Below are positions 9,771 through 28,540 of a stretch of DNA of 64,000 nucleotides, one piece after another. Each line of letters begins with the position of its first letter. The stretch's first letter is position 1. The notes below the pieces were generated by a model. It was not told where the DNA came from. It did not search any database and worked only from the letters and a program-made list of their open reading frames with translations. This DNA is from Candidatus Micrarchaeota archaeon (GTDB taxonomy: Archaea > Micrarchaeota > Micrarchaeia > Micrarchaeales > CABMGC01), in contig DAHVUT010000017.1 of assembly GCA_027328425.1 (NCBI GenBank), positions 1,777 through 65,776 of the forward strand, read 5' to 3'. Made by a program: the position numbers and the translations under genes.

Positions 9771-10871
9771 TTAGAGAATCTTGTATCCTTTCTTCGTTAT
9801 AAGTATGTCGTCCTCTATCCTCACTCCCCCAAACCCCACCTCATACACTCCTGGTTCCACAGTTATAACCATGCCGGGTTCCAACTTGCGGGTGCGCAGA
9901 TAAGATGCAGGGTTATCGTGCATCTCAAGGCCTATGGAATGGCCGATCGCATGCACGAACTCGCCCTTGTACCTGCCGTCCCTTGTGGTGTCAAGGAACT
10001 TGGCCGCCATGTCGTGCATGCCCATCCACTCTTTGCCTGGTTTCGCTAATCCGATGGCCATTTTCTGGGCTTCCTTCACCGTCTGCAACATATCCCTCTG
10101 CTTCGCACTCCCTGCGCCTCCGAAGATGAAGGTCCTGCTGATGTCAGAGTAATAGTTATTCACAACAGCACCCGCATCTATTATTACCAGGTCGCCCTTC
10201 TTGAGCTTGGTGCTATTTGAGAAATGATGAGGCAGAGCAGTGTTCTTTCCGAAAGCAACAATGTTGTATCTGGCAGATTCGTTTGCCCCCAGAGACAGTT
10301 GGATGAAATCGAAGCGCGCCATGAGCTGCAGTTCTGTCATGCCTTCCTTGAAATACTTCGGTATTTCTCTCATCGCAGTTTTGGTTATCCTTACTGCCTT
10401 CTTTATGTTGCTAAGCTCTGCCTCGTCCTTGACCAGCCTCACGCTGCGTAGTCCGTCGCTTATGTCGATCATTTTGTTGGGTCTGTAAGCGCTTTGTATG
10501 TGCCTGTATGCCTCGAAAGGCAAAAATTCTCCGTCAAAACCCACTTTTTTGCCTTTCAGAAGTCTGCTGAGCAGTGCCTTTGCGGCTTTGACGTCATCCA
10601 TCACGTTGATTACACTCATGTTTTCCGGTCTCTCTTCCAAACCGGTCTCGTACTCCAGAGAATATGTGAAAAGATACATGTGGTCCTTATGGGCCAGAAG
10701 CAGCGAACTTTCAAACAGACCGCTGGTGAATCCTGTAAGATAATGAAAATTGGGATCCACAATACCTGTATTTGCTATCAAGACCACACCTATGCCTTTG
10801 AGGTTGGCAAAGAGTCTAGCCAGCCTGTTTTTTGATGTTTTAGCAGGTAGTCTTGAGCTCATGAAATTCAC
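9771..10871 (-). CDS. pepQ: Xaa-Pro aminopeptidase / M24B metallopeptidase
   Basis: Pita-bread motifs: DAGAVVNNYYSDISRTF, HAIGHSIGLEMHD, VEPGVY...GGVRIEDD. Confidence 0.85.
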   Translation of the reverse strand: MNFMSSRLPAKTSKNRLARLFANLKGIGVVLIANTGIVDPNFHYLTGFTSGLFESSLLLAHKDHMYLFTYSLEYETGLEERPENMSVINVMDDVKAAKALLSRLLKGKKVGFDGEFLPFEAYRHIQSAYRPNKMIDISDGLRSVRLVKDEAELSNIKKAVRITKTAMREIPKYFKEGMTELQLMARFDFIQLSLGANESARYNIVAFGKNTALPHHFSNSTKLKKGDLVIIDAGAVVNNYYSDISRTFIFGGAGSAKQRDMLQTVKEAQKMAIGLAKPGKEWMGMHDMAAKFLDTTRDGRYKGEFVHAIGHSIGLEMHDNPASYLRTRKLEPGMVITVEPGVYEVGFGGVRIEDDILITKKGYKIL

Positions 10872-16588: not shown

Positions 16589-16861
16589 TTAATCAACCCA
16601 CTTACTTTTTTCGTAAATATTCCTTCTATGGCCTACTGATCTTATGAAGATGACTTTATTTACTTCATCTACATCAGCAATCAGCCTATAATCACCAATT
16701 CTCAGCTTGTACTCGGGTCTGCCCGTTAATCTTTTGAAAAAATGTCTTGGATCCTCAATGGCGCCTGCAACCTTCTTGATTATCCGCTTAGCAACTGTCT
16801 TGTCCAAGTCCTTCAATTGCGAAAATGCCTCTGAGGAATATTCAACGCTGAAGTTGCCCAC
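16589..16861 (-). CDS. relE: RelE/ParE-family type II toxin
   Basis: YKLRIGDYRLIADVDEVNKVIFIRSVGHRRNIY. The stop TAA is followed immediately by the lpd ATG. The GTG start overlaps the antitoxin stop. Confidence 0.8.
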   Translation of the reverse strand: MGNFSVEYSSEAFSQLKDLDKTVAKRIIKKVAGAIEDPRHFFKRLTGRPEYKLRIGDYRLIADVDEVNKVIFIRSVGHRRNIYEKSKWVD

Positions 16862-17091
16862 TACAACCCCAGCTTCTTTCCAACTTCATCAATAGCATAG
16901 GTTCTGCCGTGTTTGATGTCTAATAGACCGCGCAGCAAAGAAGCCCTGAATTCTTCTGTATATTTTCCTTCTTCGTCGCCCTCAGGTATTAGATCAATCA
17001 GCGTGTCGATAATCTCGCCGTAGGTTGCCCTTTTATAGGGCCTGAGTTTGTTAAGCCTCTCTCTTGTTGCCTTAGTTATTTGTATAGTGGT
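16861..17091 (-). CDS. RHH (CopG/RelB-like) antitoxin; start codon unresolved
   Basis: In-frame TTIQITKATRERLNKLR...AIDEVGKKLGL ends in a TAG overlapping the relE GTG. There is no ATG/GTG/TTG between the upstream in-frame TAG (~17142) and the RHH strand. Confidence 0.5.
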   Translation of the reverse strand, partial: TTIQITKATRERLNKLRPYKRATYGEIIDTLIDLIPEGDEEGKYTEEFRASLLRGLLDIKHGRTYAIDEVGKKLGL

Positions 17092-17169
17092 GTATGCCGT
17101 ATAATCACTGTATAATAAGTGCTTAATAGATATATAAAACTATCTGGGCGACCAGTCTCACCCTGGCAC

Positions 17170-17637
17170 CTATCTTAATTCAAGCACCGGTTCTTCTCCA
17201 TCTGGAACCTTGAAGAGTTTTTGATCAAATAGCTTGATTCGTTTGGGCGTTATCTTAAACATGCTCTCCGTTGCGGCTTTGACGGTCAATGCTGGATCAA
17301 CAACGCCTAGATTGATTTTCCAAAGTCTGAGAGCGTACTTTACCTTCTCGAAGCCAGATATCTGTTTGGCATTTCCATAAAGCTGGAGACCTCGCTTGGG
17401 CTTGTTGATGTTTTGGTCGCTGCCCGCGATGGCTATGGCCACCTTGGGATTCTTGAGTATATTCTTTGCATGAAGGGTGGTTGGGCTGCTCAGAAAGTAG
17501 ATATTGAGATTTTTATCAAAAGCATAGTAGACGGTGGCAATCCAGGGATGTTCCCCGTATGTCGCTACCGCCATCAGCTTGTGCCTAGACAGAAAGTCCA
17601 GAATCATTTGCTTGGTGAGAATTTCTTTGCTTTTCAT
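17170..17637 (-). CDS. Pyridoxamine 5'-phosphate oxidase-like FMN-binding protein
   Basis: LMAVATYGEHPWIATVYYAFD...LYGNAKQI matches the split-barrel family pattern. Confidence 0.65.
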   Translation of the reverse strand: MKSKEILTKQMILDFLSRHKLMAVATYGEHPWIATVYYAFDKNLNIYFLSSPTTLHAKNILKNPKVAIAIAGSDQNINKPKRGLQLYGNAKQISGFEKVKYALRLWKINLGVVDPALTVKAATESMFKITPKRIKLFDQKLFKVPDGEEPVLELR

Positions 17638-17640
17638 AAG

Positions 17641-18355
17641 TCATCTGCCCTCTATTGTTCTGACAGTCACCTCCTCTATGACGGTCTTGGGATTCGTGCT
17701 TACAACCGCGCGTACTATCTTTCCTATGTCCTCGGGGTCTATGAACTTGCTTTTTGGAGTCTTTGTTCCTTTCCATTCGTCTGTAAATACGGCTCCAGGA
17801 TAGATTATTGTAACACCGATGTTGTGTTTTCTTAGCTCCGCTCGCAGGCTCCTGGCCCACCCTCGTAACGCCCACTTAGAGATTGAGTAGATTGTGCCTT
17901 CCTCTTTGCCCTCCGCAGGATACGAATCAAGTGCCCAAACAGACGATGTTATCACCACTCTTTGGCCGTGGCCCTTCTTAAGGAGAGGTAGAAGTTTTTG
18001 CGTCAAATAGAACATTCCTCTAGTATTGACCGCCATTATTCTGTCATACTTGTCAAGCGAAACTGTTCTAGTCGCCCCCGGAATGTATATTCCCGCATTG
18101 TTGACAAGCACGTCGGGCACTATCTGGTGCGCAACACAAAAATGATAGAGTGCGTCTACACTTTTCGTATTAGCAATGTCGCAAGCAAATTGGTCTACAT
18201 GAACTTTTTCTTTGAAGCAATCTCGCTGGCAGATTTCTTTAGCCTGAGGGGGTCTTTTGCTACAAGGAGCAAATCATAAACCATGCTAGCAAGTTCTTCG
18301 GCTATGCCCCTTCCAATCCCCCTGCTTCCCCGGTGACTACGGCCGTTCTTTTCAT
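17641..18355 (-). pseudogene. Short-chain dehydrogenase/reductase interrupted by two frameshifts in homopolymer runs
   Basis: Three frames carry consecutive SDR pieces: MKRTAVVTG / GSRGIGRGIAEEL...SEIASKK / KVHVDQFACD...VLVNNAG...YSISKWAL. The shifts sit at a G4 run (18328-18331) and an A-rich run (18205-18213). Confidence 0.7.
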
Positions 18356-21734: not shown

Positions 21735-22016
21735 CTACAGTACGAACAGTACCTTACCAAGAATAGCATTCCTATCGACAGTGCCGAAGGTGCTGCTGTC
21801 GCTGCTGGCGTCCTTGTTATCCCCTTCCAGGAAGTACCTGCCTTCTGTTATTTGCTTGACCCTCTTTATTACCCGCATGTCCTTGAATGGATGCCTTGCC
21901 ACCACAACGTCGCCTGCTTTCGGCCTTGCGAGGCTGCACACCACAGCATAGCTCCCGGGTTCTATCGACGGCGCCATACTTTCGCCATGTACTTTGAAGA
22001 GCGCCAGAGGAAACAT
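21735..22016 (-). CDS. sodX: S26-type signal-peptidase-like protease, putative Ni-SOD maturation protease
   Basis: GESMAPSI (Ser) and VIKRV (Lys) motifs. It lies directly downstream of sodN. Confidence 0.7.
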   Translation of the reverse strand: MFPLALFKVHGESMAPSIEPGSYAVVCSLARPKAGDVVVARHPFKDMRVIKRVKQITEGRYFLEGDNKDASSDSSTFGTVDRNAILGKVLFVL

Positions 22017-22020
22017 GCTA

Positions 22021-22539
22021 TCATAGTTTGGGCAGCACCATCTTCCTCTTCGTCGGATATGGCGCGTCAACACGCTTGCTCTCTATGTTCTTGGTCTTCC
22101 AGAACACCTCCGCTATCTGCATAACGCCCTCGAGCAACGCGTCGCCGGTCTTCACATCAGTAGTCTGCCTCGCCTTCGACGCCTCCTTCATGGCCGTGAA
22201 CACGAGCTCGTGCAGATTCGAGTTGGCCTGCACATGCTCGGGCTTGAAGTAGTCGCCCCACAGTATCCTGAGCTCGTTCTTGCACATCTCCGCGTACTTC
22301 TCCTTGATCTCAGTGGCCCTTACCAGGCTGTGCATGTCCTCCACAGTAGACTTGCCGCCCGCATGCTCGTTGATCTCAGCGATGAGCTCTTGCATCCTTA
22401 TCACAGTGTGCGCTGCAAGCTGTGCGTCGAAAGGATCGTAGATTCCGCACGGATAGTCGCAGTGTGCGTAGACAGGTTCAATGTGCAGCACGCTGTCCAT
22501 TTTCCCAATAATGCCCCTAGCTATCTTCATGGATTCCAA
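22021..22539 (-). CDS. sodN: Nickel superoxide dismutase precursor
   Basis: A pro-peptide is followed by the Ni-hook HCDYPCGIYDP. Confidence 0.8.
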   Translation of the reverse strand: MESMKIARGIIGKMDSVLHIEPVYAHCDYPCGIYDPFDAQLAAHTVIRMQELIAEINEHAGGKSTVEDMHSLVRATEIKEKYAEMCKNELRILWGDYFKPEHVQANSNLHELVFTAMKEASKARQTTDVKTGDALLEGVMQIAEVFWKTKNIESKRVDAPYPTKRKMVLPKL

Positions 22540-22676: not shown

Positions 22677-23201
22677 TCATTTTTGAGGGAGGTTGAACTC
22701 TTCGAGTTTAGTTGCGACCTTAGGCGGGGTCTTTGGCTGCTCGGCGCGCAGGAGCTCTATCAGATCTTTTTTGGTGAGTCCCAAACTACACACCATACAT
22801 CCAGCAGCCTCTATCTCGCCGTCTTCGATCGCTTCGGGGATTCCCTTTTTCAAAGACTCAGACATGTCCAAATCAATACTGAAATCTAATGCAATGCGTT
22901 CCATATCGGCTATGCTCTTTCCTGGAAAGCGTGACATATTAGCGGATATATTAGCGGACATATATTTTTGGAAACCAATCATCAGTTCCCTCTTACGCTC
23001 TTCCTCTAATTTCGAGAGTGGCTCTACAGGGAATGCTTCGTGGATATCGTGTGCGTCTTGAAAGAAACCATTAGCAATATTCTCAGCTATAGCCCTGTTT
23101 ATTATCTCCTCCAATCTTAGGCTTTTTACTCGCTTTATGAAGCCACTTGCAGTTTTTCCATTTTCAAACGTCTTATTCAGATCTCTAAGGTTTGTACTCA
23201 T
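22677..23201 (-). CDS. Hypothetical protein (174 aa)
   Basis: Clean ATG ORF with plausible composition. I recognise no family. Confidence 0.45.
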   Translation of the reverse strand: MSTNLRDLNKTFENGKTASGFIKRVKSLRLEEIINRAIAENIANGFFQDAHDIHEAFPVEPLSKLEEERKRELMIGFQKYMSANISANMSRFPGKSIADMERIALDFSIDLDMSESLKKGIPEAIEDGEIEAAGCMVCSLGLTKKDLIELLRAEQPKTPPKVATKLEEFNLPQK

Positions 23202-24271: not shown

Positions 24272-24415
24272 ATGGAAATGCTCACATGCGACAGGCTCGG
24301 CAAGGAGTACGAGAAGGGCAAATGCGCGCTTGACAACGTCAGCCTTTCCACACCCGCCAAAGGCATCTTCGCGCTCATAGGCAGGAACGGGGCCGGCAAG
24401 ACCACACTTGCTTAA
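24272..24415 (+). pseudogene. Truncated ABC-transporter ATPase (N-terminal 47 aa only)
   Basis: MEMLTCDRLGKEYEKGKCALDNVSLSTPAKGIFALIGRNGAGKTTLA then a stop. The sequence ends just after the Walker A motif, where the AT-rich island begins. Confidence 0.6.
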
Positions 24416-24430
24416 GGTAAATATTATCAG

Positions 24431-25318
24431 CTATTTCAGGTATCTTTGGTGCTCTTTTATATATCTCCTAAAGAACCATAGTACAAATATCGAATCGATT
24501 TTCTTGACTTGCGCCCTTTCTAAGGCATTATAGTAGCCTATCCGATTTTTGTAGGATACATTGAGCATCGGATAACCTAATCTATTTAAGATAAAGTTCA
24601 TAACAAGACGGGATAGTCTTCCATTTCCGTCTATAAAAGGATGTACTGTAACGAATTTTAAATGCGCCAGCGCAGCTAGTTCAACGGGGTGTATTTTCGT
24701 TTTGTTTTTATTGTACCAACTAAAGAAATCATCAAGCAATGGCATGACTTCTATTGGGCTCGGAGGTACGAATTTGCTGCCATATATCCAAACCTGCCTC
24801 GTTCGTATTTTTCCAGCTATATCTTTTTGTGTATTTTCAAAAAGAGAATGATGCCATTCCAAGATGAGTTGTAGTGTCAAATCCCTTTTATATTTCAGCA
24901 TGTTGTAAAAAACGTTTGAATGGGCTTCTGCCTCTTTAACATCTCTGGTAGGTTTATTTGAAGGCGTTACTCCGTGCTGTAGCAAATTAGCTGTTTCCTT
25001 CAAAGTTAGTGTTGAGCCCTCTATTTTTTGAGTGTCATAAGTAAACTTAATCATAAATCCTTCAATTTCTCTGTTTTTTTCGGAGACAGTTGCAGAATCA
25101 ATATCCTTTTTATAAGCTGCCTTTATTTTATCTAATGACAGATACCACTTTTGGGTATAAATCTGTGTAAGAAAATCGCTCTTTATTTTGTCTAAATTTT
25201 TAGGTATGCTGCTTCCCAAGTATTTCTCCTTCTTAATAACAATTCCATTAAGTCTAAATGAATGTTCAAGATAATAGTACTTTTTACTCCCGTATTTTCT
25301 TTCCCTTATATTTACCAT
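24431..25318 (-). CDS. fic: Fic/DOC-family protein (class II, intramolecular inhibitory helix)
   Basis: Fic motif HPFIDGNGRLSR. The N-terminal TQKIEG fits the inhibitory (S/T)xxxE(G/N) motif. Confidence 0.85.
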   Translation of the reverse strand: MVNIRERKYGSKKYYYLEHSFRLNGIVIKKEKYLGSSIPKNLDKIKSDFLTQIYTQKWYLSLDKIKAAYKKDIDSATVSEKNREIEGFMIKFTYDTQKIEGSTLTLKETANLLQHGVTPSNKPTRDVKEAEAHSNVFYNMLKYKRDLTLQLILEWHHSLFENTQKDIAGKIRTRQVWIYGSKFVPPSPIEVMPLLDDFFSWYNKNKTKIHPVELAALAHLKFVTVHPFIDGNGRLSRLVMNFILNRLGYPMLNVSYKNRIGYYNALERAQVKKIDSIFVLWFFRRYIKEHQRYLK

Positions 25319-25329
25319 AATAATACTTA

Positions 25330-25375
25330 CCCCTACATATTTATAAATATTAGTATTTCTATCAAAATGTAGGGG
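25330..25375. promoter_or_regulatory. 9-bp inverted repeat (cccctacat / atgtagggg) bracketing a TATA-like ATTTATAAAT, immediately upstream of fic
   Basis: The arms are at 25330-25338 and 25367-25375. The fic ATG is at 25318. Confidence 0.35.
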
Positions 25376-25428
25376 CAGACATTAGGCTGGCTATTGGATT
25401 CGTACCCTGCTTCCTCGTAAAGCAAAAA

Positions 25429-25480
25429 TGGACTCAGCGGGATTCGCACTCGCAGCCTTCCGCTTGCAAAGTGGAACGGT
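25429..25480 (-). other. tRNA-Ala(UGC)-like 3' fragment (anticodon arm to 3' end), no 5' half
   Basis: About 80% identical to positions ~26-73 of the tRNA-Ala at 28469-28540, including the unusual TGCGAAT T-loop. It has stem mismatches (A.C in the anticodon stem and the T-stem). No matching 5' acceptor strand lies within 200 nt. Confidence 0.6.
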
Positions 25481-25584
25481 CGTAGCTTTATCGTCTAGCT
25501 TTTGTTTCATGTAGTCACCGTATGTTTTATTTTCGCAGATGCGAACATCTGTGTTTCTGCACACAGATTATGCCACGTTCAGAA

Positions 25585-25630
25585 ATATAAAGGAATACGG
25601 CGCAGTTCTTAGCTGTAATCGCACCCAGAC
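25585..25630. repeat. ~46-nt imperfect direct repeat (~76% identity) with 27549-27593, bracketing the ATPase plus small-ORF cassette
   Basis: atataaaggaatacggcgcagttcttagctgtaatcgcacccagac versus ctataaaacaatatggcacaattctagccgtaactgcacccaaac. Confidence 0.55.
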
Positions 25631-25640
25631 TATGAAAGTG

Positions 25641-26927
25641 CTATTCTACCGGGCTCTTCACATTAAGTAGCCACCTCCAGAGCGGCACAAATATCAGTTT
25701 TTTGCCTTCCAATACCGCACTGCCTTCATAGTCCCATGTAAGCACAAGAAGATTGTCGCATCTCAGCTCTCTTGAAGCCAGAATTAACGAATTAATTTCT
25801 CTGCTGTCTATGGCTTCGCGGCTTGAAGCGTATGTAACCTGCACAAGTTGGCTAACAGTCCTGCCCATTTTGACAACAAAGTCCACCTCCCTGCCTTGAT
25901 GATCTTTCCAATAAAATACTTCATATTTGCCTCCATTTTTGCTCTCCTTTATGAGCTCTATGGCGGCTATGTTTTCCATTAGCCTGCCTTTGTTATCTGT
26001 CGGCTCAGGGCTTACTTCTTCTATTATACCGCTATCAACGCAGTATATTTTTTTGGGTGCCAGAATAGTCTGTTTCAACTTGTATGAGAACCGTTCAACT
26101 TTGAATATGAGATACGCCTCCTCAAGATATCTTATCCAGTTGGATAGGGTTATGAGGTTCTTTACCTTAGTTATGCTTCTCAGCGATGAATACGTGAATT
26201 CCTTTGAGCTGTTTGATACCAGAAAACGTGCAACCTGCCTTAAGTCATCAATGTGCTTTATTTTGTGCCTTATGACAACGTCCTTTGTTATTATGTCGTT
26301 GTAGATGTTCCTTATTATCTGCCTGCCCTGCGTAAACTGCTCTGCAAAGCCTCCAGAGAGCACATATTCGTTCATCAGCTTGATAACTTCGGCTCTATCC
26401 ACAGTTGAAAAAGCCCTTGGGGGATTCCACTGTTTGTACACTAGAAATTCATGAAAGCTGAATGGAAAAAGCAATAGGTCCACGTGCCTGCCAGTCAGCC
26501 GGGTTGAAAGCTCACCGCTCAATAGCTTAGAATTTGAACCCGTTACAATGACCTTTTTTGTATCTCTAAGCCTGCTAACAAACGGCTCCCAGCCTGGCAC
26601 TAACTGTATCTCATCAAGTATTATGTTTTCAAGATCCGAGCCGTATAATTCATAGAATATCTGAAGTATTACGTTAAGGTCATTTTTATCCACGCCGAGG
26701 AGCCTCTCATCATCAAAATTTATGTATCCAAACTTGCGCTCAAAAAACAATTGTTCTGAGAGTGTGGATTTGCCAGAGCGTCTAACTCCCAGTATTACAA
26801 AAGCCGTGGGATTTTTCAATGTGACGTACTCAATAGCGTCTCGTGTGATTATACTCTTGGCTTTGAACCGCTCCCCAACGCTTTTTCTCTGGTCGACTAT
26901 TGCTAGTCTAAGAACCTCTTTATCCAT
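25641..26927 (-). CDS. AAA-type ATPase of the archaeal COG1373 (AAA_14 + DUF4143) family
   Basis: Walker A GVRRSGKST, Walker B-like IILDEIQ, and a C-terminal restriction-endonuclease-like region typical of the family. Confidence 0.75.
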   Translation of the reverse strand: MDKEVLRLAIVDQRKSVGERFKAKSIITRDAIEYVTLKNPTAFVILGVRRSGKSTLSEQLFFERKFGYINFDDERLLGVDKNDLNVILQIFYELYGSDLENIILDEIQLVPGWEPFVSRLRDTKKVIVTGSNSKLLSGELSTRLTGRHVDLLLFPFSFHEFLVYKQWNPPRAFSTVDRAEVIKLMNEYVLSGGFAEQFTQGRQIIRNIYNDIITKDVVIRHKIKHIDDLRQVARFLVSNSSKEFTYSSLRSITKVKNLITLSNWIRYLEEAYLIFKVERFSYKLKQTILAPKKIYCVDSGIIEEVSPEPTDNKGRLMENIAAIELIKESKNGGKYEVFYWKDHQGREVDFVVKMGRTVSQLVQVTYASSREAIDSREINSLILASRELRCDNLLVLTWDYEGSAVLEGKKLIFVPLWRWLLNVKSPVE

Positions 26928-27080
26928 AATATAGTATACTATATGATATTATTTAAATCTTTACTAGTATACTATATGATTTTAAACAGCCTAACAGATA
27001 TACAGTGAATTGTTTACTGACACTTTCGCATCGCTCTCAAAGTTTGCAAGAAACGGTCCGTTTTTTGAGTGCACCTGTTC

Positions 27081-27437
27081 TCATCGCGCCTTTCTCGGAA
27101 TGCTTTTGGTGTATTCTGCCATGGCCGCTTCTAGGCACTTTTTTATCTCGCTGCGTTCTCCATCTTCATAGAATCCAATATCAAATCCTATGTCTACGAG
27201 CGAGCCTTTTATCTTTTCCATAGACTCCACAGCGATATATACTAGCTTATGGATTTCGCGTCCATCTCTATACACTACATTAAAGACATTGTTGTCTTCC
27301 TCATCTTTTGCTACTTCGGCATTAGAGAAAATTCCGCTGTCCATAATCTTTTTGCAGGTGAGCGACGCTATTCCCTTTGCTTGCTCTAGCCCCAGCCTCA
27401 AAGCCGCCTCGAAAGTATCGGTCTTTACCATTTTCAC
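27081..27437 (-). CDS. Hypothetical protein (118 aa)
   Basis: AT-rich ATG ORF downstream-adjacent to the ATPase cassette. I recognise no family. Confidence 0.45.
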   Translation of the reverse strand: MKMVKTDTFEAALRLGLEQAKGIASLTCKKIMDSGIFSNAEVAKDEEDNNVFNVVYRDGREIHKLVYIAVESMEKIKGSLVDIGFDIGFYEDGERSEIKKCLEAAMAEYTKSIPRKAR

Positions 27438-27659
27438 ACCTTTGACAGCGTATATTCGTCTTTATTTTGCAATTACTTCATCATACATTAAATTCGCATT
27501 TATACCTCTTATCTAGCTTTCGCATGCGGATAATGGCGTCCTTAGACCTATAAAACAATATGGCACAATTCTAGCCGTAACTGCACCCAAACCCGCTTGC
27601 GGTTCTGTCGCTTGAGTTGACAAGAGCTTTCTGATTAAACTCTTTCCCAAAGAGTTTAT

Positions 27660-27671
27660 TGGACTCGGCGG
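27660..27671. repeat. 12-nt exact copy of the tRNA-Ala 3' end (tggactcggcgg), part of an acceptor-like mini-hairpin
   Basis: Identical to 28469-28480. It is followed by tgagtcc (27683-27689), which can pair with ggactc. Confidence 0.5.
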
Positions 27672-27756
27672 ACTTCAGTAAATGAGTCCGATGCACAAAC
27701 AATGTTATTCAACATCACATGCAGGTAACTAATTGCACCGAAGACAAACATAACAA

Positions 27757-28383
27757 TTATAGTTTCTCTATGCAGACTTCTAGCGCAACTCTAACTGCTC
27801 TAAGTTCTTCTTTTTCAGCTAGGCTTGGAATGTTAGCCTTTATTCCGTAGTGAACTCCTTTTTTCTCAATCACTTGTTTGTGTGTAAGCGGCAGGTGCAT
27901 GAACCCTGCGTACTTTATCTTCATTTCATGCGCAGTTTTCATTATCGTATAAAACAGTTCATTTGAAACAAATGTATCTGGCCAGAAAGAATATTCTGAG
28001 GGTATGCCTGCTTCTTCTATTCTAGATTTTATTGAATCTACTGGCAATGTCGAGAAGTAGGCGGCCTCACCGTTTTTACTAAGGGGTTTGTCTATTATTT
28101 TATCTTCAGAAGCAAAATAAAAACGATTCAAGGCAACCCGTTCTATAGATACAGAACCCCTTGTCGCTGATAAACCCACTCCCAATATCAGCGAGGGGTG
28201 TGTTTCAGCAATATACTTTTCAGCTAATGTTGAAGCAGTTATATGCTCAACAGGAAGCACCATACCAATAATCTTGAATCCCTTAATTATCTTTCCGTTG
28301 AGTTTTTTTGCAATGTTACCACTAGGGTTGCAAGTGTAACTTAGAAATGGGCCAAATCCAAGCAATAATACATTCTTTGGCAT
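27757..28383 (-). CDS. pcp: Pyrrolidone-carboxylate peptidase (C15) homologue with Ser at the nucleophile position
   Basis: SIERVALN (Glu) and AGFMHLP (His) are conserved. The AGTFVCN-equivalent reads PDTFVSN. Confidence 0.75.
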   Translation of the reverse strand: MPKNVLLLGFGPFLSYTCNPSGNIAKKLNGKIIKGFKIIGMVLPVEHITASTLAEKYIAETHPSLILGVGLSATRGSVSIERVALNRFYFASEDKIIDKPLSKNGEAAYFSTLPVDSIKSRIEEAGIPSEYSFWPDTFVSNELFYTIMKTAHEMKIKYAGFMHLPLTHKQVIEKKGVHYGIKANIPSLAEKEELRAVRVALEVCIEKL

Positions 28384-28468
28384 ATTTCCACATAATAAGT
28401 TTCATGCGATAATATTTATAGGTTTTTAATAGAACGTAAGATTCGTACTCAAAGTATGATGTACTTTG

Positions 28469-28540
28469 TGGACTCGGCGGGATTCGCACCCGCGACCTTT
28501 CCGTTGCGAACGGAATGCGCTACTGCTGCGCTACGAGCCC
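28469..28540 (-). tRNA. tRNA-Ala (anticodon CGC) with G3:U70; atypical D- and T-loops
   Basis: GGGCTCG TA GCGC AGCAGTA GCGC A TTCCG TTCGCAA CGGAA AGGTC GCGGG TGCGAAT CCCGC CGAGTCC A. All stems are perfect. The D-loop lacks GG, and the T-loop has G at position 55. Confidence 0.75.

Follow-up and report, generated by a model that had tools for sequence, protein, structure and literature searches.

How an AT-rich block of genes came to lie directly against an intact transfer RNA gene is the question raised by a 64,000-nt stretch of DNA from a Candidatus Micrarchaeota archaeon (assembly GCA_027328425.1, contig DAHVUT010000017.1, positions 1,777 to 65,776), which is called the window here and supplies all coordinates unless another locus (L001, L002 and so on) is named. 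The gene is a tRNA-Ala(CGC) on the minus strand, placed by ARAGORN at 28468–28540 and by Rfam at 28469–28540 (66.8 bits), which is the integration target, with the chromosomal attachment site (attB) in its 3′ part. The island that adjoins its 3′ end extends from 24410 to 28465 and has a GC content of 0.393, against 0.542 in the remainder of the window; in 500-nt windows the GC content is 0.35–0.43 from about 24400 to about 28500 and 0.50–0.60 on either side. Four genes, all on the minus strand, are located in it, namely fic, an AAA_14/DUF4143 ATPase gene, an orphan open reading frame (ORF) named ORF118, and a pyroglutamyl peptidase-like (Pcp-like) gene of the Peptidase_C15 family, with module GC contents ranging from 0.34 to 0.45 across the island (0.34–0.35 for fic, 0.37 for pcp and 0.42 for the ATPase gene). 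An initial annotation, made from the sequence alone, had described this AT-rich stretch beside a minus-strand tRNA-Ala(CGC) as the outcome of serial site-specific integration, and both the tRNA and the drop in GC content are borne out. We consider it likely that at least three, and probably four, integrative elements had entered the 3′ end of this tRNA gene one after another, were trapped and underwent extensive deletion, and that the island is the stack that they left.

The comparison with related genomes, which the initial annotation had called for, revealed that the island consists of foreign DNA that had been inserted at the 3′ end of tRNA-Ala. Among species-representative genomes, the CCA-adding enzyme encoded beside the tRNA has two relatives, in L001 (78% protein identity) and L002 (76%), both of which are Candidatus Micrarchaeota, whereas a look-up for an exact match to its protein gave no hit, and synteny with the window continues for >20 kb at 77–82% nucleotide identity in blastn, with L001 at 82%. 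The tRNA-Ala(CGC) itself is 100% identical across the window, L001 and L002 in a three-way alignment, and the homology to both relatives stops 2–3 nt past the tRNA. L001 represents an empty site, with the order EamA, full ABC ATPase, ABC-2 permease, tRNA-Ala(CGC) and CCA enzyme and a uniform GC content of 0.54–0.60, while a second empty site was observed in L038 (CCA enzyme, tRNA-Ala and PMT_2). The AT-rich island, with 4056 bp, occupies the position of 1529 bp of transporter genes in L001. An intact adjoining tRNA, absence from the same site in relatives and deviant composition, by which tRNA-linked islands are recognized, were thus all found here.

The outer end of the island lies in a chromosomal gene, the ABC-transporter ATPase, of which a 5′ stub remains at 24272–24415 on the plus strand (Pfam ABC_tran). 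Its stop codon, TAA at 24413–24415, falls just past the Walker A motif, and homology to the full-length L001 gene stops at about 24408–24409 (blastn end 24408), which sets the junction between island and chromosome at about 24409/24410. The truncation after Walker A, as first described, is thereby confirmed against a complete gene, and the missing remainder is absent from the 64-kb window, where tblastn with the full L001 protein covers residues 13–82 only. What was lost amounts to about 1.5 kb of chromosome, comprising the C-terminus of the ABC ATPase and the permease. Because L015 carries an island at the equivalent place yet keeps its transporter intact, this truncation is a secondary deletion and not a consequence of integration.

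Two fragments of the tRNA gene were observed within the island. The shorter one (27660–27676, minus strand) agrees with the tRNA 3′ end at 15 of 17 positions and includes 12 exact nucleotides at 27660–27671, as the initial annotation had stated; TGGACTCGGCGG is found in exact copies at 27660–27671 and 28469–28480, and with one mismatch allowed it has six matches in the window, compared with 0.32 expected from shuffles. The flank of this relic is homologous to the DNA directly after the intact tRNA in L002 and L023. The longer fragment (25429–25470) shows 81% identity to the tRNA over 42 nt, with a local alignment score of 26 against 9.9 ± 1.1 and a maximum of 14 in 300 shuffles, carries TGC at the anticodon position, and resembles UGC-type copies elsewhere up to about 25478. 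Both are genuine attachment-site (att) relics and not chance matches, the shorter being the distal att of the pcp module. The longer one had been described as a tRNA-Ala(UGC)-like piece of about 52 nt and about 80% identity, a resemblance that holds, although the piece belongs to the coding sequence of an integrase.

That coding sequence is part of a conserved unit. In blastn, the stretch 25406–25628 recurs beside ATPase homologues on other contigs with 70–82% identity, and 25391–25640 recurs in many contigs with 70–88% identity. Alignment, a metagenome pattern scan and further loci defined a unit of about 250 nt, which contains, in order, GTCTGGGTGCG motifs with a hairpin, a TATA box (TTTATATTTCT), a second hairpin, a GGTG Shine–Dalgarno sequence, the start ATG AAA CAA AAG CTA GAC..., and a core made of the 3′ two-thirds of tRNA-Ala, which may be CGC-type or UGC-type. 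From the ATG to where the core ends, 13 of 13 distinct copies measure 81, 84 or 120 nt and are free of stops, and since these lengths are in frame and open in every copy, the stretch behaves as coding sequence. A profile of eight of the encoded N-terminal peptides, searched against 5.8 billion proteins, recovered 46 ORFs with lengths of 31–89 aa only; those that were read begin MKQKLDEKAR..VRNG.VAGAIPAES, and at least one of them (P0165) reads across a real tRNA-Ala.

In the window, the integrase promoter and leader occupy 25511–25640 on the minus strand, with a CTGGGTGCG motif at 25620–25629, the TATA box TTTATATTTCT at 25581–25591, a hairpin at 25549–25566 and the GGTG Shine–Dalgarno sequence at 25516–25519. 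The start of the integrase gene, int(N), follows at 25391–25510 on the same strand and consists of the first 27 integrase codons (MKQKLDDKATTVPLCKRKAASANPAES) and then 12 codons to a stop, with the att core at 25429–25478 as a tRNA-Ala(UGC)-type 3′ fragment inside it. A 29-codon stub of the C-part, int(C), is located at 27571–27659 (minus strand), where the frame continues from the shorter tRNA relic for 32 codons (AESNKLFGKEFNQKALVNSSDRTASGFGCSYG, to a stop; ..SSDRTASGFGC..) and matches the beginning of the integrase C-part located after tRNA-Ala in L002, L023 and L033; in tblastn with a composite integrase, this stretch was matched in L002, L023 and L025. The stub is fused, at a GGGTGC motif (27581–27594), to a second copy of the promoter region (27505–27594, minus strand) with a TATA-like box at 27544–27555, which is internally deleted and has lost int(N) and the att core. 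The 46-nt imperfect repeats that were taken in the initial annotation to flank a gene cassette are real (25585–25632 and 27545–27595, with GCACCCARAC confined to these two places), but each belongs to a longer unit, the two being homologous copies of the integrase promoter region, and they do not mark cassette boundaries. Likewise, the statement that no integrase remains is correct for the catalytic part, of which no sequence was detected anywhere in the window, but not for the promoter with int(N) at 25391–25640 or for the int(C) stub. The proposal of serial site-specific integration is retained as to the foreign insertion, the genuine att relics and a structure that fits successive events, with its integrase and cassette claims corrected.

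Several further observations concern the att relics and the unit. A CGGACT/AGTCCG hairpin (27668–27689) overlaps the 12-nt relic just downstream of pcp, and a 30-nt imperfect palindrome (25321–25384) lies in the gap between the int(N) tail and the start of fic; each could be a terminator or regulatory site. In L005 (3466–5110), an ATPase homologue has a full unit upstream (core end at about 3604) and, 60 nt past its stop, 13 nt of the tRNA end alone (GCCGCCGAGTCCA), a short-repeat pattern like that of the pcp module in the window, which may represent a second way of entering att cores. Two tRNA-Ala-like cores in L012 (2864–3010 and 7850–7925) harbor insertions of about 30–36 nt after the anticodon, at the canonical intron position, and the 36-nt insertion in segment seg0 leaves the int(N) frame open; this is either an in-frame insertion or the mark of an att copied from a tRNA-Ala with an intron. 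A near-invariant stretch of about 100 nt is found just upstream of the integrase promoter at the less-decayed ends of L033 (9745–9860), L037 (9705–9820) and L025 (9415–9530); it is predicted to fold into several hairpins (−37 kcal/mol, one compensatory pair), is matched by no Rfam family and does not occur in the window.

How such units would have been placed can be read from related loci. In L023, the CCA enzyme and tRNA-Ala(CGC) are followed immediately by the unit, and L025 is 100% identical to L023 over 6334 nt, starting within the T-arm of the tRNA. Upstream of this switch, L023 carries the tRNA 5′ part, while L025 carries an element of at least 10 kb with GmrSD, DUF87 and type III restriction-modification genes that ends in a second unit with a UGC-type anticodon arm. 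To judge from their sequences, the two are an unoccupied and occupied pair, with a hybrid att as expected from site-specific integration into a tRNA, and the position of the switch inside the T-arm lends indirect support to a recombination of the element's att (attP) with the tRNA by the integrase.

The catalytic part was found in L033, which begins with an open frame of 291 codons (Pfam Phage_integrase, 39 bits; int(C) at 1–876), continues with about 10 kb of cargo and then contains the unit (int(N) at 10040–10119). Its frame is open back to base 1 of the locus with no upstream stop, and its first codons (ASGSGCG...) are encoded by GCAAGCGGGTCTGGGTGCG, a sequence likewise found after the intact tRNA of L023 and of L002 and, in the window, after the 12-nt relic. 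When int(N) and core from L033, the 36-nt tRNA flank from L023 and int(C) from L033 are joined, the composite of 996 nt is open throughout and encodes 331 aa with the catalytic signature HSLRHY..Y; beyond the tRNA end and on into the catalytic ORF of L033, the frame stays open and its protein sequence (..GD+..SGSGC) is conserved. As the composite frame runs open across int(N), core and int(C), the att appears to lie inside the integrase gene, which would be split upon integration. Loci other than L033 retain at most the first ~47 codons, and their junctions fall at the repeated GTCTGGGTGCG motif. The cargo of the related loci comprises restriction-modification, toxin-antitoxin and abortive-infection genes.

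From this anatomy, the following history may be proposed. The elements would form a family whose tyrosine integrase of about 331 aa carries a copy of about 45–50 bp of the 3′ two-thirds of tRNA-Ala inside its own gene, at about codons 12–28. Recombination with the chromosomal tRNA would restore the tRNA and split the integrase gene, placing the catalytic int(C) directly after the tRNA and the promoter, int(N) and displaced tRNA 3′ end at the far end of the element, which would then be stuck. Its interior might be lost by deletion between GTCTGGGTGCG repeats, one in int(C) and two upstream of the promoter, and the next element would enter the restored tRNA and push the older debris outward. Read outward from the tRNA, the resulting layout would be the pcp module, the 12-nt relic, the int(C) stub with the decayed promoter copy, ORF118 and the ATPase gene, the promoter and int(N) with a UGC-type core, a 12-codon int(C) stub, fic and the ABC stub; in this order, fic is the oldest surviving module. 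A later deletion would have taken the outermost att together with about 1.5 kb of chromosome, namely the ABC ATPase C-terminus and the permease.

Several points weigh against this history. The full-length integrase was put together from two loci, with the junction between tRNA and int(C) falling just outside L033, and the catalytic part is kept at that one locus only. No uninterrupted, episomal integrase gene was found when the int(N) profile was searched against the 5.8 billion proteins, the DNA pattern of the unit against IMG/VR, and the composite integrase against plasmid and phage collections; the relatives of the integrase on viral contigs are remote, with 25–42% identity over fragments. 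The pcp module is without an integrase remnant, and since it has no integrase debris and a distal repeat of only 12–17 nt, its route of entry may have been a different one. The outermost boundary at about 24410 has no att copy, this att having presumably been lost along with the ABC deletion. The block of ATPase gene, int(N) and fic could also have been assembled in another genome and have arrived as one.

This last point, taken further, would make the whole island a composite that was assembled elsewhere, already with old att relics, and transferred once from a lower-GC archaeon. Such an origin would account for an island that is AT-rich throughout (0.34–0.45) and close in GC content to the contigs that bear the unit (0.34–0.49), and for two independent read sets that contain 100% identical pieces without variants; the order of ATPase gene and then unit also recurs elsewhere (L012–L014 and L023), an association that stems largely from locus sampling. 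We nevertheless judge a single transfer to be quite improbable, as the modules differ in GC content (fic 0.34, pcp 0.37 and ATPase 0.42), the 12-nt relic is followed by DNA similar to that after the intact tRNA in L002, a relative of this genome, which is consistent with that junction having formed in place, and L023 and L025 show single elements entering tRNA-Ala one by one. The island might also be an ordinary tRNA-linked one that has lost a classical, non-split integrase, with the unit as a non-coding att arm and the short ORF as incidental. The repeated GTCTGGGTGCG motifs and hairpins do resemble arm-type sites, all the ORFs over the unit are short (31–89 aa), and the L033 integrase fits the general Phage_integrase model and not that of the SSV family. 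This possibility is unlikely in our assessment, although less so than the single transfer, given that the length from ATG to core is a multiple of three and open in 13 of 13 copies, the one with the 36-nt insertion included, and that an open, conserved frame connects the end of the tRNA with the catalytic ORF of L033, with no stop upstream in L033 back to its first base.

The tRNA-like unit was also considered as a functional RNA gene, that is, a split, permuted or tRNA-like RNA with its own promoter. The unit does possess a TATA box, a leader hairpin in which one change is compensatory (in copy 3 of L014, ATCCG..CGGAT instead of ATCTG..CAGAT), and a tRNA-like 3′ domain followed by a T-run. 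On the other side, it matches no Rfam family at E ≤ 1 and has no 5′ acceptor strand, ARAGORN finds no tRNA in it, and it occurs in several diverged copies per locus; its tRNA-like part is CGC or UGC in type, tracking the neighboring or host tRNA, and its coding frame is conserved. We regard an RNA gene as very improbable, the least probable of these explanations. Integrase genes split at the tRNA and left behind by successive elements are the reading that we follow below.

The largest of the island genes encodes a COG1373-type ATPase (25641–26927, minus strand) with AAA_14 and DUF4143 domains (Pfam 2.1e-34 and 6.5e-27), which matches PADLOC PDC-S01 at 8.5e-96 over residues 25–422 of 428. It has 3907 homologues at E ≤ 1e-30, those located on contigs being 76–81% identical, and as a stand-alone gene with restriction-modification and AbiE neighbors it is very common. 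The profile match to PDC-S01 is strong, but PDC entries are candidates with a putative defence function, and no paper that tests DUF4143 proteins in defence was found in the literature. Just upstream of the ATPase start lie two 20-nt direct repeats, each containing the perfect palindrome TAGTATACTA, 33 nt apart (26932–26984), and the same motif precedes the ATPase homologues in L005, L008 and L012; going by this recurrence, the repeats are probably the ATPase's own operator, possibly for autoregulation by its C-terminal DNA-binding part. A self-mobile ATPase cassette between tRNA-like repeats, as L005 and L012 had brought to mind, was rejected in favor of the integrase-gene anatomy, which explains these repeats better.

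ORF118 (27081–27437, minus strand) is an orphan of 118 aa to which no family was assigned. It has one identical relative in the databases and two distant ones in a set of 1.8 billion cluster representatives. Its confident AlphaFold model (pLDDT 87.5) predicts an alpha-beta4-alpha fold, for which Foldseek gave no match in PDB (best E 0.14) or BFVD (5e-3). It was not located beside any of the ATPase homologues examined.

The Fic-domain protein (24431–25318, minus strand; Pfam Fic 4.1e-23) has an intact HPFx[D/E]GNGRxxR motif (HPFIDGNGRLSR) and an N-terminal TQKIEG, read from the translation, which corresponds to TxxxEG of the inhibitory-helix type. It resembles SoFic by its PADLOC match to that profile (2.7e-34), beside a match to PDC-S04, but is far under the cut-off of the NCBIfam SoFic equivalog, with 30.8 bits against 550. 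The small ORF and ATPase, which the initial annotation had joined in one cassette, do not form one, ORF118 being an orphan that is missing beside ATPase homologues and the ATPase having its own promoter and putative operator. Similarly, its uncharacterised defence cassette reduces to single genes with candidate annotations in PADLOC and is unsupported, because the ATPase is stand-alone, ORF118 has no conserved partner and Fic falls below the SoFic cut-off. As far as their sequences indicate, the ATPase and Fic are independent single genes, and captured single-gene defence candidates at most.

The module next to the tRNA (module W, 27672–28467, minus strand), which is the newest by position and has a GC content of 0.37, contains the Pcp-like gene (27757–28383, minus strand) as its sole gene. 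Its product is a full-length match to Peptidase_C15 (Pfam 5e-41), as in pyroglutamyl peptidase I (MEROPS C15), but differs in having Glu-Ser-His in place of Glu-Cys-His, in line with the variant peptidase first described; in the alignment to P. furiosus Pcp, Ser replaces the catalytic Cys (TFVSNELFY) while the Glu and His of the triad are kept. It lies below all NCBIfam equivalog and subfamily cut-offs. The best PDB match is 1ioi (P. furiosus Pcp), which has Ser at the aligned position and which we take to be a Cys-free mutant.

Island pieces with 100% identity were observed in L003 (window 28498–25353) and L004 (window 27664–25406), assembled from the read sets DRR872537 and SRR13205814 of other samples, both contigs ending within or next to the tRNA and att copies. 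Breaks at the conserved unit occur in L002 and several further contigs as well, and the repeated att and integrase debris seems to fragment assemblies at tRNA-Ala.

Two other variable spots were detected in the window outside the island. The first one (21735–22539 and 22677–23201) contains a nickel superoxide dismutase (SOD; Sod_Ni, 7e-40) and an adjacent S26/S24-type peptidase, the latter being the usual maturation partner of nickel SOD, together with an AT-rich ORF of 174 aa that has no family and a GC content of 0.43. L001 has an Fe/Mn SOD at the same place (6547–7182), so it looks like one SOD type was replaced by another. The second spot (16589–18120; GC 0.46–0.47) separates the E3 and E2 genes in a 2-oxoacid dehydrogenase cluster and harbors a ParE-family toxin with no obvious antitoxin ORF called, a PNPOx-like protein and a 5′-truncated short-chain dehydrogenase, while L001 has a cytidine-deaminase-like gene there (2676–3176).

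Taken alone, the island is an ordinary decayed genomic island, and archaeal gene capture is a known kind of event; the lineage and the integrase family are what is new. We put forward tentatively, with somewhat less than even confidence, that the integrase fragments belong to an undescribed self-splitting lineage that is Xer/Phage_integrase-like, targets tRNA-Ala, is independent of the SSV/pTN3/pT26-2 superfamily and occurs in non-hyperthermophilic archaea including Micrarchaeota, where it would ferry restriction-modification, toxin-antitoxin, AbiE, DUF4143-ATPase and Fic genes and leave them captured at one tRNA. If this is true, the self-splitting design would have evolved more than once and would not be tied to high temperature, and archaea of the DPANN group with tiny genomes would have a route to gain and fix defence-type genes, here at the cost of a host transporter. 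The unit of promoter, int(N) and att also provides a readily searchable marker for captured elements in metagenome bins, and would account for the assembly breaks at tRNA-Ala.

With classical tRNA-linked genomic and defence islands, the island shares its location at a tRNA 3′ end, direct repeats of that tRNA end, deviant composition, absence from relatives and, in related loci, defence-type cargo such as restriction-modification, toxin-antitoxin and abortive-infection genes. Unlike them, it contains no intact integrase and has its distal att embedded in integrase coding sequence, while it lacks the outermost att and a pair of chromosomal genes has been deleted.

The closer comparison is with self-splitting integrases, which have been described as a peculiarity of hyperthermophilic archaea that originated once in evolution, and in which an att inside the integrase gene leads to archaeal gene capture (PMC8371274, PMC7253208). 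As in the SSV-type integrases, the att here is a copy of the tRNA 3′ part within the integrase ORF, int(N) and int(C) are located at opposite ends of the element, and trapped elements decay and accumulate at the tRNA; in the window itself, only int stubs (27571–27659 and 25391–25510) are left. Gene capture by SSV-type integrases, with SSV1, pXQ1, pTN3 and pT26-2 as examples, was reportedly described by She et al. in 2001. Integrases of the SSV family are also similar in size to the 331-aa composite. The differences begin with the catalytic part, which matches PF00589 only and not, even at E ≤ 10, PF16795 (Phage_integr_3), the hallmark of all known suicidal families (PMC8371274). Of the solved structures, P. 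abyssi XerA is the closest to it, and the PDB list contains no chain under the name of an SSV1 integrase. The att also lies near the 5′ end of the gene, at about codons 12–28. Finally, the known suicidal integrases are hosted by Sulfolobales, Thermococcales, Archaeoglobales and a few Methanosarcinales (PMC8371274, PMC7253208), whereas the hosts here are Micrarchaeota, which belong to the DPANN archaea, and other archaea of lower GC content.

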